Of a stretch of DNA of 64,000 nt, positions 27,767 to 48,962 are shown piece after piece. The stretch spans positions 94,206 to 158,205 of the forward strand of contig VMFS01000001.1 of assembly GCA_007376185.1 (NCBI GenBank), written 5' to 3'. Source of the stretch: Parcubacteria group bacterium Gr01-1014_30. Lineage in GTDB: Bacteria; Patescibacteriota; Minisyncoccia; Minisyncoccales; 2-12-FULL-40-12. The notes below the pieces were generated by a model. That model was given only the letters and a program-made list of their open reading frames with translations. It did not search any database and was not told the origin of the DNA. A program made the translations under genes and the position numbers. Position 1 is the first letter of the stretch. Each line of letters opens with the position of its first letter.

Positions 27767-28915
27767 ATGGCAAAAGCGGTCCAAGAGGTTCTCGTGCGCT
27801 ATGGCGAGATTTTTTTGAAGTCACCGTTTGTTTTCAGGCAGTTTGAAAAAAAGCTTGTAGAAAACGTAGCCAGAGTTTTCAAAAGAAGGGGCGTAAAGTT
27901 TAAAATAAGAAAAGAAAGGGGCCGCATTTTTGTTGAGGCGCCAGTTTCAGAAGCCCGTGAGCTCCAAAATGTCTTCGGAGTTGTTTCTTTTTCGCCTGTT
28001 TGGCGGCTTGGTTCGGTAAAACTCAAGGATATAAAAAATTTTTGCAAAGATAAATTTAAGGGATTTGTCAAAAAGGGAGAAACGTTTGCAGTCAGGGCTA
28101 AGAGGGTGGGCAACCACAACTTTTCCAGTAAGGATTTGGAGGTAGAAGTGGGTAAAGTCGTTAGGGGAAAAGTTGACTTATCAAGGCCGCAAAAAGAGAT
28201 TTTCGTTGAGGTAAGAGAAAATGAGGCCTATATTTTTACGGAGGTTTTTCAGGGGCCGGGAGGGTTGCCGGTTTCAAGTTCCGGCAAAGTCGTTTCTTTC
28301 ATTTCCGGGGGCATTGATTCGGCTGTTTCTTCCTGGCTTGCCATGAAAAGGGGCTGCCAAGTCGTTTTTCTGCATTTTCACAGCTTCCCGCTTGTTTCTC
28401 AAAAAAGCATTGAGAAAACTAAAACCATTGTTGAAAAGTTAAACGATTATCAGTTCAACGGCAAGCTCATTTTGATCCCTTTCCAGAAAGTTCAGCAGTT
28501 ATTGAAACTTGGAGCGCCGGCCAAGTATTTAGTTGTTTTGTACAGGCGCTCGATGGTTCGGGTTGGTCAAAACTTGGCCGAGGAAGAAAAAGCCAAAGCT
28601 TTGTTCACGGGCGAGTCCTTGGGACAGGTTTCCTCTCAAACTTTGCCGAACTTAGCAGTTATTGACGAAGCCGCCAAGCTTCCCGTTTTCAGGCCTTTGA
28701 TAGGTATGGACAAAGCGGAAATTATTGACATTGCCCGAAAAATAGGTACTTTTGAAACGTCAATTTTGCCACAGGAGGACTGCTGCCAGCTTTTTGTGCC
28801 AAAACACCCTGCCACACAAGCCAACGTGGCGCTGATAAAAGATATTGAAAAGAAAGTAGGCGTTCAAAAACTGGAAAGGGAAATCTTAAAAGAGAAGCGG
28901 GAGATTTTTGTTTAA
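27767..28915 (+). CDS. thiI: tRNA 4-thiouridine synthase ThiI
   Basis: THUMP-like N-terminus. PP-loop SGGIDSAVS. The ATG at 27767 follows the Nif3 stop. Confidence 0.8.
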   Translation: MAKAVQEVLVRYGEIFLKSPFVFRQFEKKLVENVARVFKRRGVKFKIRKERGRIFVEAPVSEARELQNVFGVVSFSPVWRLGSVKLKDIKNFCKDKFKGFVKKGETFAVRAKRVGNHNFSSKDLEVEVGKVVRGKVDLSRPQKEIFVEVRENEAYIFTEVFQGPGGLPVSSSGKVVSFISGGIDSAVSSWLAMKRGCQVVFLHFHSFPLVSQKSIEKTKTIVEKLNDYQFNGKLILIPFQKVQQLLKLGAPAKYLVVLYRRSMVRVGQNLAEEEKAKALFTGESLGQVSSQTLPNLAVIDEAAKLPVFRPLIGMDKAEIIDIARKIGTFETSILPQEDCCQLFVPKHPATQANVALIKDIEKKVGVQKLEREILKEKREIFV

Positions 28916-29118: not shown

Positions 29119-29279
29119 AACCTGTTTTATGATACCGCCAAGGCCGCTTTACTTCAAGCCCCGTATATCATCTTCGACAGGATTTTCTTTTAGAAAATCC
29201 TGTAATCGCGAAGCGAGTCGAAGTTGTATTACGGGGCAAGGTTGACTTAGTTTATTTTAATAGGTAAGATATAGCCATT

Positions 29280-29368
29280 GGAGGAGTGCGTGAGTGGTTC
29301 AAACGAGCGGCTTGCTAAGCCGTGGCGGCCTAATAAGTCGCCCGTGGGTTCAAATCCCACCTCCTCCG
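29280..29368 (+). tRNA. tRNA-Ser (anticodon GCT), type II with long variable arm
   Basis: Acceptor GGAGGAG/CTCCTCC. Anticodon stem-loop GCGGC-TTGCTAA-GCCGT. Long variable arm. T arm GTGGG-TTCAAAT-CCCAC. Confidence 0.75.
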
Positions 29369-29414
29369 CACTTCGGAAGCTCAGTGCAAGCATTTGTTTT
29401 AAGAGTATAAATTA

Positions 29415-29576
29415 ATGAGTATGTGGTACACGTATGTGCTTCTTTGCGATCAGAAAACTTTTTATGTAGGAGTTACAGATAACCCTGTAGCGAGGATAGG
29501 TCAACATAGAAATAGAAAACCACTTTTTACTAAAAAGTTTTTCCCACCTCCTCCGCTTTCTGGAGGGTTCGCCTAA
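29415..29576 (+). pseudogene. truncated GIY-YIG nuclease gene remnant running into tRNA-Ser(TGA)
   Basis: Translation MSMWYTYVLLCDQKTFYVGVTDNPVARIGQHRN is the GIY-YIG N-terminal motif. Compare the intact paralogue at 48518-48775. The ORF stops after 54 aa inside the tRNA. Confidence 0.6.
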
Positions 29577-29646
29577 TGGTATGGCACCGCTCTTGAAAAG
29601 CGGCGGACGAAAGTCCTTAGAGGTTCGAGTCCTCTACCCTCCGCCA
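29562..29646 (+). tRNA. tRNA-Ser (anticodon TGA) with encoded CCA
   Basis: Acceptor GGAGGGT/ACCCTCC. Anticodon stem-loop CCGCT-CTTGAAA-AGCGG. Long variable arm. Ends GCCA. Confidence 0.75.
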
Positions 29647-48487: not shown

Positions 48488-48915
48488 CCCCGCACCTTTT
48501 CAGGACTTATTAACTTAATGTACTGGGTCTATATCATAAAAAGCGAGCTCCACAGTAAGTTATACATTGGCCGTACCAATGACTTATCTAAGAGATTAAA
48601 AGATCATAACTCAGGAAGATCCCCATCTACAAAAAAATACATACCATGGAAACCAGTTTATATTGAAGGCTACGCCGTTGAACAAGACGCTAAAGACCGA
48701 GAAGAAAAAATGAAATACTTTGGTAAGGTTTATAGCCAACTTAAAATAAGGATCAGGCGTAGCCTTCGGTCCTGAAAAGGTGCGGGGTTTTGATTGACAA
48801 AGGAGTTTGCTGTATAATAATAGAAGTAGCAGGAAATATACAAACCCCGCACCTTTTTTGTGCTCCTTTCAGTAATTTTGATGCCGTAGGCATCAAGCAC
48901 ACAAAAGGTGCGGGG
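48488..48915. repeat. four copies of a 13-bp palindromic unit CCCCGCACCTTTT in alternating orientation
   Basis: Copies at 48488-48500 (+), 48775-48787 (-), 48845-48857 (+) and 48903-48915 (-). The first pair brackets the GIY-YIG gene and the second a 45-bp hairpin. Confidence 0.7.
48518..48775 (+). CDS. stand-alone GIY-YIG nuclease-domain protein (YhbQ/UPF0213-like)
   Basis: MYWVYIIKSELHSKLYIGRTNDLSKRLKDHN is the GIY-YIG motif. Flanked by inverted CCCCGCACCTTTT repeats. Confidence 0.75.
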   Translation: MYWVYIIKSELHSKLYIGRTNDLSKRLKDHNSGRSPSTKKYIPWKPVYIEGYAVEQDAKDREEKMKYFGKVYSQLKIRIRRSLRS

Positions 48916-48962
48916 AAAGGTCGAGCATCAATCATAGATCAAAAATTTAAACTATAATAATT

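Follow-up and report, generated by a model that had tools for sequence, protein, structure and literature searches.

Free-standing GIY-YIG homing endonuclease genes of T4-like phages (PMC2988022, PMC13096335) are among the closest described counterparts of the locus examined here. Genes of the Seg family, such as SegB in the T4 tRNA gene cluster, are lone GIY-YIG nuclease genes that lie outside any intron, sit among or next to tRNA genes, are thought to spread by cutting alleles that lack them, and pass through cycles of gain, decay, and loss. GIY-YIG homing enzymes typically cut some distance from the insertion point, and homing co-converts the flanks and leaves no target duplication and no inverted-repeat ends. 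Seg and I-TevI enzymes have a DNA-binding domain and an I-TevI-like catalytic domain. Other GIY-YIG nucleases include Slx1, which works with Slx4 in eukaryotic repair and cuts branched DNA (flaps, junctions), and the bacterial UPF0213 proteins (YhbQ-like, COG2827), for which our literature searches found no known function or tRNA linkage and for which no mobile-element role is known.

Several other systems share parts of this architecture. Integrase-borne genomic islands and prophages insert into tRNA and tmRNA 3' ends from the T-loop onward (e.g., Williams 2002), leaving an intact tRNA upstream and a displaced 3' fragment downstream as a direct repeat. Casposons (PMC4046053, PMC5137440) are Cas1-driven transposons of 8 to 20 kb that also carry a polymerase; they have terminal inverted repeats, an unusually long target duplication (about 14 to 15 bp), and a preference for tRNA 3' ends. 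IS200/IS605 insertion sequences are small, have hairpin-forming ends rather than simple TIRs, and use short internal guide segments that base-pair with the cleavage or target sites; they rely on an HUH (Y1) transposase, make no target duplication, and target tetra- or pentanucleotides. GIY-YIG ORFs occur in non-intron insertion sequences of rRNA genes in the CPR (PMC11270868), and fungal mitochondrial GIY-YIG ORFs, such as that of Allomyces atp6, are fused in frame to a protein-coding host gene and keep it intact by supplying a duplicate of its 3' end, the original 3' end remaining downstream as a fragment.

We examined a 64,000-nucleotide stretch of the Parcubacteria bacterium Gr01-1014_30 genome (here the window), in which the original prediction noted that the last 15 nucleotides of tRNA-Ser(GCT) recur downstream, with a truncated GIY-YIG ORF between the copies whose frame runs into tRNA-Ser(TGA). 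This observation is confirmed. The 15-mer TCCCACCTCCTCCGC occurs exactly twice, at 29355 to 29369 and 29542 to 29556 on the + strand, and these are the only two matches in 64 kb even with two mismatches allowed; the chance expectation is 0.05, and 0 of 100 shuffles gave two matches. The first copy covers the last T-loop base, the T-stem 3' strand, the acceptor 3' strand, the discriminator G29368, and one further base of tRNA-Ser(GCT), while the second ends 5 nt before tRNA-Ser(TGA). The possibility that the second copy belongs to a functional third tRNA had been set beforehand as a ground for refutation, but neither ARAGORN nor Rfam (E-value threshold of 10) finds a tRNA or tRNA fragment over it or elsewhere in 29467 to 29556. 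The ORF at 29415 to 29576 (53 aa) matches positions 1 to 40 of 78 in the Pfam GIY-YIG profile (PF01541; E value of 2.8e-7, above the curated cutoff), with the pattern WYTYV...FYVG...R...H. The features of the locus are as follows.

29280 to 29368 (+): complete tRNA-Ser(GCT), the host gene, whose 3' end is the insertion target (Rfam tRNA model, 55.4 bits over the full model; ARAGORN places the gene at 29280 to 29369).
29352 to 29369 (+): left copy of the target duplication, tRNA nt 57 to 74, AAATCCCACCTCCTCCGC, of which only the last 15 nt (29355 to 29369) are still repeated downstream.
29370 to 29391 (+): left end (LE) of the cassette, ACTTCGG-AAGCTCAGTGCAAGC, directly after C29369; this is the family 23-mer with one C deleted.
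29392 to 29420 (+): 5' untranslated spacer; in an alignment with 10 relatives, the relatives start at the ATG aligned with 29421, so the ATG at 29415 is probably not the native start.
29421 to 29541 (+): surviving N-terminal part of the GIY-YIG gene (MWYTYVLLCDQKTFYVGVTDNPVARIGQHRNRKPLFTKKF), lacking the half with the catalytic Glu and Asn.
29451 to 29542 (+): conserved internal hairpin H3, in which CAGAAAACTTTTT (29451 to 29463) pairs with AAAAAGTTTTT (29532 to 29542), detected as an inverted repeat in the window and in the family consensus structure; the 5' strand of helix H2 (TGCTTCTTTGC, 29437 to 29447) also survives.
29541 to 29542 (no strand): deletion junction, where the window aligns with relatives up to ...ACTAAAAAGTTTTT and then jumps to the sequence that follows the right end (RE) in relatives; about 230 bp are missing, comprising the rest of the ORF, the 3' strands of H2 and H1, RE, and 0 to 3 nt of the right repeat.
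29542 to 29556 (+): right copy of the target duplication, the displaced original 3' end of tRNA-Ser(GCT), of which 15 nt remain, followed by TTTCT and the next tRNA.
29562 to 29646 (+): tRNA-Ser(TGA) (ARAGORN, Rfam), the original downstream neighbor and not part of the cassette.

A word-indexed protein search with the 53-aa remnant gave no candidates, and an exact lookup of the ORF found no record. Synteny around ThiI did not recover the locus in relatives: the closest ThiI (72%) has only tRNA-Arg(CCG) downstream, others have no tRNAs there, and one related locus (L003; L numbers denote individual related loci) ends before the tRNA-Ser genes. The tRNA 3' end (a 21-mer), used to scan a genome collection, is shared by many phyla; the Patescibacteria loci that it gave include L053, L116, and L051, which provided the first hint of tRNA-linked GIY-YIG genes.

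A metagenome scan seeded only with peptides of the remnant, and not with tRNA sequence, returned 49 loci, in which 39 ORFs are at least 83 aa and end inside the locus; most full-length genes are 94 to 105 aa and lie directly 3' of a tRNA. The remnant has up to 73% identity to full-length relatives (over residues 2 to 42), with matches never extending beyond residue 48 and mostly ending at residues 42 to 43. LE is carried by 38 distinct loci; its consensus, ACTTCGGCAAGCTCAGTGCAAGC, is exact in 21 and one edit away in 9 of them. In 21 of the 38, LE abuts a tRNA on the same strand, of which 19 were found by ARAGORN and 2 (L138 and L152) have a separate group I intron within the tRNA. Nine tRNA species are involved: Ser-GCT, Ser-GGA, Ser-CGA, Ser-TGA, Asn, Gln-CTG, Gln-TTG, Glu, and Tyr. 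About 17 LE loci have no tRNA directly upstream, and only two of these are explained: L157 and L159 have cargo DNA between the tRNA and LE and retain the exact 18-nt repeat.

In 15 distinct intact loci the cassette is 353 to 409 nt long and has the same anatomy. LE is joined directly to tRNA position C74 and is followed by a single ORF of the WYVYLLLCDQKTFYVG... family on the tRNA's strand, then by RE (..CTGAGYTTRCCGAAGG), an inverted repeat of LE, and then by a 16- to 19-nt copy of that host tRNA's own 3' end, from T-loop position 57 to 59 to C74, with 0 to 3 mismatches; the left copy touches LE and the right copy touches RE. The upstream tRNA therefore stays complete, and the original 3' end is displaced downstream. 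For example, L147 lies behind a tRNA-Ser(GCT) with the same 3' end as in the window, and its complete 359-nt cassette is flanked by GAATCCCACCTCCTCCGC on both sides. L147, L190, and L178 to L185 come from groundwater and sediment metagenomes. L198 (GCA_021786945.1) shows the same architecture, with the same TTCAAAT loop as in the window and an 18-nt repeat starting AAATCC, together with a second, truncated LE after the right repeat, and a sister group linked to tmRNA has a 16-nt repeat of the tmRNA 3' end. A comparison of L188 and L190, which diverge 12 nt past the right repeat, was not informative about the element boundary. In the window itself no RE was found with three mismatches allowed, consistent with its position in the deleted segment, and no further copies of LE were found. 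LE is absent from 120 non-family loci, its two matches in viral contigs are chance matches inside unrelated coding sequence, and phage records yielded only homologues at 35% identity or less, of which the one whose context was checked (in a Rhizobium phage) is not next to a tRNA.

The full-length relatives belong to the Slx1/UPF0213 branch of the superfamily. The PDB sequence hits are the UPF0213 proteins 1YWL and 1ZG2 (E value of about 4e-6), and a predicted structure (pLDDT of 86) is closest to UPF0213 and Slx1 in Foldseek (probability of 1.0; rmsd of 1.9 Å to 6SEH over 71 residues), with I-TevI (0.28) and UvrC (0.23) far weaker. Across 37 members E61 is invariant and R25 and N83 are at least 90% conserved, and the median dN/dS of 0.16 at a dS of 0.5 to 1.5 indicates purifying selection. 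The window copy lacks the C-terminal half and cannot be an active enzyme. The cassettes also contain three nested helices totaling 42 bp, with 95% of cells paired, compared to 41 to 53% when slid, and the minimum free energy fold has a z score of -3.0. Synonymous sites are nearly invariant inside the helices only. A covariation test was not significant because the columns hardly vary; the case for the helices thus rests on complementarity and frozen synonymous sites, which do not separate an RNA role from a DNA role. LE and RE pair over about 15 nt, with duplex energies of -17 to -34 kcal/mol, and show compensatory changes in both ends in L162. A segment of the cassette is complementary to its own target repeat (0 of 20,000 permutations were as good).

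We interpret the locus as a dead, internally deleted copy of a small insertion cassette that targets the 3' end of tRNA genes in CPR/Patescibacteria (probability of roughly 0.8). In this reading tRNA-Ser(GCT) originally lay about 6 nt upstream of tRNA-Ser(TGA), and after insertion the cassette lost about 230 bp, from codon 43 through RE into the first bases of the right repeat, leaving LE, 42 codons, and 15 nt of the repeat; the frame running into tRNA-Ser(TGA) is an accident of the deletion. Comparison with relatives demonstrates the anatomy of the cassette, whereas recognition, cleavage, excision, and insertion are inferred from that comparative anatomy alone. The nuclease would recognize the T-arm/acceptor end common to tRNA and tmRNA genes and cut in the T-loop (56/57) and after C74, and the cassette would be joined or copied in so that the interval between the cuts is duplicated. 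The gene would have no promoter of its own and be read through from the tRNA, and the helices, together with the hairpin pairing the cassette with its target repeat, would either regulate the transcript or form the branched substrate that an Slx1-like enzyme needs. A 96-aa protein without a DNA-binding domain is, however, a thin basis for site-specific insertion. In L053 a tRNA-Ser(GCT) with the same 3' end is followed after 20 nt by tRNA-Ser(TGA) without this cassette, but L053 is a distant relative, and no pair of near-identical genomes with a filled and an empty site was found. Copies are old and partly cluster by tRNA type, such that much of the distribution could be vertical with only rare moves. 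Other loci are also truncated or disrupted (L161, L165, L168, L174, L176, and L140).

The original interpretation, that the duplication is the classic scar of integration into a tRNA gene and seems to record a decayed element of the same gene family as the intact GIY-YIG gene at 48.5 kb, is partly supported. Its core, that the two copies of the tRNA 3' end bracket a decayed GIY-YIG-carrying insertion, is right. The gene at 48518 to 48775, however, shares only the superfamily with the remnant (26% identity over 47 residues), belongs to another subfamily with different terminal repeats, and lies in a pilus operon rather than at a tRNA, ruling out a recent copy. An integrase-mediated island decayed to the present 187 bp is also very unlikely: although a direct repeat of a tRNA 3' end is typical of such islands, no recombinase lies between or near the repeats in any of the intact loci, and the repeats differ with each host tRNA while the cassette ends stay the same, unlike an attP that matches one attB.

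Among the alternatives, the one that remains possible, if less likely, differs only in how the truncation arose: a break in the T-loop of tRNA-Ser(GCT) may have been repaired by copying from a cassette-bearing allele, with synthesis starting in the tRNA, running through LE and 42 codons, and then aborting and being end-joined to the other side of the break, which still carried nt ~60 to 74. One-directional copying from the tRNA side predicts that relics keep the LE side and lack the distal side, as seen in the window, L140, L161, L168, L174, L176, and the second LE of L198, and the right junction of the window lies 3 nt from the T-loop position (56/57) where the repeat starts in intact copies. 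On the other hand, most other relics have lost the right repeat as well, which fits ordinary deletions extending into the flank, and the one-base deletion in the window's LE, unique among the LE copies seen, suggests decay after inactivation; there is no clear microhomology at the junction, and for the window itself a later deletion and an incomplete original copying event cannot be told apart. It is unlikely that the cassette is instead a host module, a tRNA-linked nuclease acting on DNA or RNA and co-transcribed with tRNAs, with the repeats and hairpins as processing or regulatory signals and the window having lost one dispensable copy. Strong purifying selection on the protein over long divergence, the strictly same-strand position 30 to 100 nt behind tRNAs, structured RNA-like helices with G:U/G:C alternation, and a published note that a prokaryotic Slx1-like domain is fused to a tRNA methyltransferase, hinting at RNA metabolism (PMC1564403), would fit this view. 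However, duplication of each host tRNA's own last 16 to 19 nt is the signature of insertion rather than of a processing signal, and the range of tRNA species and tmRNA, the tandem and reinvaded sites, the frequent dead copies, and the absence of the cassette from L053 at the same tRNA pair also argue against it.

We regard as improbable an ancestral tandem of tRNA-Ser(GCT), GIY-YIG, tRNA-Ser(GCT), and tRNA-Ser(TGA) that lost the 3' half of the gene and most of the second tRNA in one deletion. The second 15-mer does lie where a tRNA-Ser(GCT) would sit next to tRNA-Ser(TGA), and in L053 a GIY-YIG gene of another subfamily lies between a 78-nt partial copy and a complete copy of tRNA-Ser(GCT), but in 15 intact relatives the downstream copy is never a whole tRNA and starts right after RE at the same T-loop position, a pattern that the window fits to within 3 nt. 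A chance match or an unrecognized third tRNA has nothing in its favor beyond the tRNA-like sequence itself and is refuted by the tests above and by the GIY-YIG coding sequence upstream of the second copy.

Relative to the Seg genes, the cassettes share a lone nuclease gene near tRNA genes, and distant cutting would fit the 18-nt interval, but the protein is ~96 aa and Slx1/UPF0213-like, and a target duplication and inverted-repeat ends are constant features. The branched-DNA activity of Slx1 would suit a cassette whose ends can form hairpins or cruciforms. In contrast to integrase-borne islands, the unit is about 0.4 kb rather than kilobases, has no tyrosine or serine recombinase, and has the same ends with nine different tRNA repeats. 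Casposons carry Cas1, whereas the only ORF here is GIY-YIG, and no transposase of a known class (DDE, HUH, Ser, Tyr, Cas1) was found. The segment complementary to the target repeat is reminiscent of the guides of IS200/IS605. The rRNA insertion sequences share the bacterial radiation, small GIY-YIG ORFs in structural RNA genes, and the lack of an intron ribozyme, but that paper mentions neither tRNA genes nor direct repeats (PMC11270868). The Allomyces atp6 type differs in its protein-coding host, organellar setting, and lack of inverted-repeat ends. The cassette is also not a group I intron with a GIY-YIG gene, as Rfam gave no intron hit in it and insertion is at the 3' end rather than in the anticodon loop.

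A more speculative reading, which we hold only tentatively, is that these cassettes are a new class of prokaryotic mobile element whose only enzyme is an Slx1-like, structure-specific GIY-YIG nuclease. The element's own folded ends would provide the substrate, an internal 8- to 11-nt segment complementary to nt ~59 to 69 of the target tRNA would help choose or hold the target (nucleic acid-assisted targeting), and two cuts 18 nt apart would produce the long target duplication that keeps the tRNA alive.

For the window, these findings turn an odd 15-base repeat into an explained structure, the displaced 3' end of tRNA-Ser(GCT) left by a small cassette that has since died. More broadly, they expose a widespread family with at least 249 protein clusters in Parcubacteria, Pacebacteria, and Woesebacteria, with a strict architecture at tRNA and tmRNA 3' ends, for which we found no description in the full-text library searched or in Rfam. 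If they move as inferred, they would be the smallest protein-coding insertion elements known to us (~0.4 kb) and the first driven by an Slx1/UPF0213-type nuclease, giving that large bacterial family of unknown function a role, and the target-complementary segment would merit consideration as a retargetable specificity determinant. They would also show a way to insert into an essential gene without harming it and would explain why genes annotated as GIY-YIG nuclease family proteins and orphan tRNA 3' fragments sit next to tRNAs in CPR genomes.

The 15-mer TCCCACCTCCTCCGC occurs twice in the window and nowhere else within it, even with two mismatches allowed; the chance expectation is 0.05 matches, and no shuffle gave two. 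The observation of a repeated tRNA-Ser 3' end in the original prediction is therefore confirmed. The features of the window that bear on it are as follows.

29280-29368, tRNA-Ser(GCT)
29355-29369, first copy of the 15-mer, at the end of tRNA-Ser(GCT)
29370-29391, left end of the cassette (LE), with one C missing
29415-29576, ORF matching the GIY-YIG family
29542-29556, second copy of the 15-mer
29562-29646, tRNA-Ser(TGA)
48518-48775, intact 85-aa GIY-YIG gene

The first copy covers the last T-loop base, the T-stem 3' strand, the acceptor 3' strand, the discriminator, and one more base of tRNA-Ser(GCT), while the second copy ends 5 nt before tRNA-Ser(TGA). Neither ARAGORN nor an Rfam search with a permissive threshold found a tRNA or tRNA fragment over the second copy. 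The ORF matches the first 40 of 78 positions of the Pfam GIY-YIG model, but it is only 26% identical to the intact GIY-YIG gene at 48518-48775, which lies between pilC and a pilin gene. That intact gene is itself bracketed by a perfect ∼19-nt inverted repeat, with CCCCGCACCTTTTCAGGAC at 48488-48506 and its complement ending at about 48787-48790; a second pair of the same arms (48845-48857 and 48903-48915) encloses ∼45 nt with no ORF, and all four arm copies in the window are at this locus (48488-48917). It looks like another inverted-repeat-bounded GIY-YIG mini-element plus an ORF-less derivative, inserted between the two pilus genes, and near-identical contigs carry it too. A long imperfect hairpin between tRNA-Arg(GCG) and tRNA-Ser(GCT) (29158-29237), with 21-nt arms at 81% complementarity plus a perfect inner 12-nt pair, has no match in Rfam.

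We sought relatives of the locus in Parcubacteria group bacterium Gr01-1014_30 by several routes. Synteny through ThiI (27767-28915), which is 100% identical to the ThiI of that bacterium, was uninformative, although many of the named homologs of this Parcubacteria ThiI, at 49 to 57% identity, are from DPANN archaea (Aenigmatarchaeota, Parvarchaeota, and Nanoarchaeia), and in related contigs (L125 to L128; loci carry the prefix L throughout) ThiI follows Archease and RtcB, which are RNA-ligase genes; this may reflect gene exchange between CPR bacteria and DPANN archaea. A genome scan with the tRNA 3' end was too unspecific, but it did show that small GIY-YIG genes in Patescibacteria sit inside partial duplications of tRNA genes in two loci, L053 (a Patescibacteria single-cell genome) and L116. 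These belong to a different GIY-YIG subfamily that lies upstream of tRNAs, inside duplications of the tRNA 5' part. In L053 (4200-4900, minus strand) a copy of tRNA-Ser(GCT), from 5 nt upstream of the gene to nt 56 (78 nt in all), ends at the same T-loop position (C56) and is followed by the GIY-YIG gene and then by the complete tRNA and tRNA-Ser(TGA), while in L116 (6530-6920) the first 11 nt of tRNA-Ser(GGA) (GGAGGAGTCGC) are repeated on both sides of an 86-aa GIY-YIG gene. The productive step was a metagenome scan seeded only with peptides of the remnant, which returned 49 loci with up to 73% identity over remnant residues 2 to 42. Nearly all matches stop at residue 42-43, which places the end of homology exactly at the start of the second 15-mer.

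Full-length proteins of these relatives are mostly 94 to 105 aa, with the consensus MW.VY.LLCDQKTFYVGITDNP..RL.EHR.K.S.FTKKFSDI.FVYCE.Y..KH.AALREKQIKGWS.AKKQMLIDGKLGYN.CTELVEVL. Of 38 distinct loci that carry the upstream motif ACTTCGGCAAGCTCAGTGCAAGC (LE), 21 have it exactly and 9 have it with one edit. In 21 loci LE directly abuts the 3' end of a tRNA on the same strand, the tRNAs being Ser(GCT), Ser(GGA), Ser(CGA), Ser(TGA), Asn, Gln(CTG), Gln(TTG), Glu, and Tyr. Two of the host tRNAs were missed by ARAGORN because they contain group I introns (Rfam RF00028; 86.8 bits for L138, 2698-2892, and 63.3 bits for L152, 7-198), and these tRNA genes therefore carry two different insertions. After the stop codon comes a right end (RE), ..CTGAGYTTRCCGAAGG, which is an inverted repeat of LE, and immediately after RE comes a 16- to 19-nt copy of the host tRNA's own 3' end, running from T-loop position 57-59 to C74 with 0 to 3 mismatches in 15 distinct loci. 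The LE-to-RE unit is 353 to 409 nt. In five loci the right copy continues with the rest of an encoded CCA, while the left copy reads G-C-ACTTCGG; the right copy is therefore the original end, and the insertion point is after C74.

Some loci without an adjacent tRNA have it further upstream. In L157 and L159 a tRNA-Asn lies 1.8 and 0.85 kb upstream, respectively, and its last 18 nt equal the right repeat after RE exactly, with other DNA between the tRNA and LE (1176-2948 in L157 and 794-1636 in L159); in L159 this DNA includes a 228-aa ORF that, on appearance only, looks like a methyltransferase. The tRNA end next to these cassettes may be a hotspot for capturing other DNA. In L198, from an NCBI genome (GCA_021786945.1), the host is tRNA-Ser(GGA), with the window's TTCAAAT loop and an 18-nt repeat AAATCCTGTACCCTCCGC, and a second LE plus 5' UTR, truncated at the start codon, follows the right repeat. 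We read this as an occupied site that was invaded again, which suggests that the target need not extend beyond C74. LE is tandemly triplicated in several loci (L143, L153, and L135, upstream of the ORF), and solo LE copies follow the right repeat in L153 and L198 (2834-2880 in L198). Two contigs, L188 and L190, carry the identical cassette and upstream flank but diverge completely 12 nt after the right repeat (from about 1843 onward), reflecting either a rearrangement or an assembly chimera next to the element. A sister subfamily with different ends sits behind tmRNA, and in one of its loci, L166, two tandem genes are followed by a 16-nt repeat of the tmRNA 3' end.

Aligned with ten relatives, the window matches from the tRNA T-arm through LE, the 5' spacer, and 42 codons, up to ...ACTAAAAAGTTTTT, and then continues with the sequence that in relatives follows RE. 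About 230 bp are missing, comprising the rest of the ORF including the catalytic Glu and Asn, RE, and up to 3 nt of the right repeat. The best comparator is the metagenomic locus L147, whose tRNA-Ser(GCT) has the same 3' end and carries a complete 359-nt cassette flanked by GAATCCCACCTCCTCCGC. Removing 29370-29556 from the window restores tRNA-Ser(GCT) about 6 nt upstream of tRNA-Ser(TGA), the arrangement seen, with a 20-nt spacer and no cassette, in L053. Similar relics that keep the LE side and lack the distal side were found in five loci of the family (L140, L161, L168, L174, and L176).

A sequence search of solved structures recovered the UPF0213 proteins 1YWL and 1ZG2, followed by Slx1. 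An AlphaFold model built from 37 family members has a mean pLDDT of 86, and the nearest folds to this predicted structure are UPF0213 and the Slx1 nuclease domain (rmsd of 1.9 Å over 71 residues), whereas I-TevI and UvrC are weak matches. The catalytic Glu is invariant, and the conserved Arg and Asn are kept in at least 90% of members. Pairwise dN/dS has a median of 0.16 at dS of 0.5 to 1.5, indicating that the protein has been kept functional over long divergence.

RNAalifold on 15 units predicts three nested long-range helices: H1 (18 bp) pairs LE with the codons for CTELVEV, H2 (11 bp) pairs the LLLC codons with the AKKQ codons, and H3 (13 bp) pairs the DQKTFY codons with the TKKFSD codons. 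In these helices 95% of cells are paired, against 41 to 53% when partners are slid, although covariation is not significant because the columns hardly vary. Independent support comes from synonymous sites; inside the helices the commonest codon is used by 81 to 100% of sequences (for example, Leu CTT 100%, Ser TCT 96%, Ala GCA 100%, and Thr ACT 100%), while at equally conserved four- to six-fold degenerate residues elsewhere the figure is 28 to 52%. The MFE fold of L147 reproduces the helices, with z = -3.0. RE offers an alternative partner for LE, and in the locus L162 both ends carry matching changes. The stretch between the stop codon and RE is complementary to the cassette's own right repeat and changes with the host tRNA, as in GGGGGTGGGAT/ATCCCACCCC in the locus L143, GGAGGGAT/ATCCCTCC in the locus L137, and GTACAGGAT/ATCCTGTAC in L198. 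Own pairs average -15.8 kcal/mol against -11.7 kcal/mol for cross-locus pairs, and no permutation out of 20,000 did as well. This stretch is not a copy of the tRNA's T-stem 5' strand, because the neighboring bases differ from the tRNA. Nothing in the cassette matches Rfam. The window keeps LE, the H2 5' strand, and both H3 arms, and the deletion starts at the foot of H3.

The comparisons establish the architecture, the target duplication specific to each host tRNA, the range of targets, the tandem sites and those we read as re-invaded, the relics, and the selection on protein and ends; how the cassette arrives and is expressed is our inference. In this view, the nuclease would recognize the T-arm/acceptor end shared by tRNA and tmRNA genes, and breaks would fall at the two edges of the duplicated interval (T-loop 56/57 and after C74). 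Two routes can be envisaged, one through staggered cuts with fill-in and the other through a T-loop break repaired by copying a donor, with the 18-nt repeat serving as the second homology arm; either specific cutting-and-joining route remains tentative at best. The gene has no recognizable promoter space and always follows the tRNA on the same strand, so read-through expression is likely. Insertion after C74 destroys an encoded CCA, and since CCA acts as an anti-determinant, this would by analogy allow RNase Z-type cleavage after the discriminator to separate tRNA and mRNA. The cassette tree clusters partly by tRNA type, but Tyr and Asn each appear twice and Ser and Tyr are interleaved, which fits mostly like-to-like spread with occasional target switches. 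We place a probability of 0.9 on the window being a relic of this family, and we consider it very likely, if slightly less so, that the family is an insertion element.

The cassette resembles several known systems but fails a defining feature of each. It resembles free-standing GIY-YIG homing genes, but it has a target duplication, inverted-repeat ends, and a different nuclease branch. It has no recombinase, as tRNA-integrating islands would; no known transposase, as IS elements and casposons would; and no ribozyme, as group I intron genes would. Literature searches found GIY-YIG ORFs in CPR rRNA insertions (PMC11270868) and general GIY-YIG surveys (PMC1564403), but none described tRNA-end cassettes, although the literature covered was incomplete and a prior description cannot be excluded. 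We regard the cassette as a selfish nuclease-gene cassette, a kind of element already known, with a real chance that it is a new class of element.

The interpretation in the original prediction is partly supported: the repeat was read essentially correctly as the scar of a decayed GIY-YIG element, but the further claim that the remnant and the intact gene at 48.5 kb are of the same gene family did not hold, as the element is not a sibling of that gene, and neither is it an integrase island. It is instead a member of a structured, tRNA-end-specific cassette family, one that merits experimental attention in its own right.
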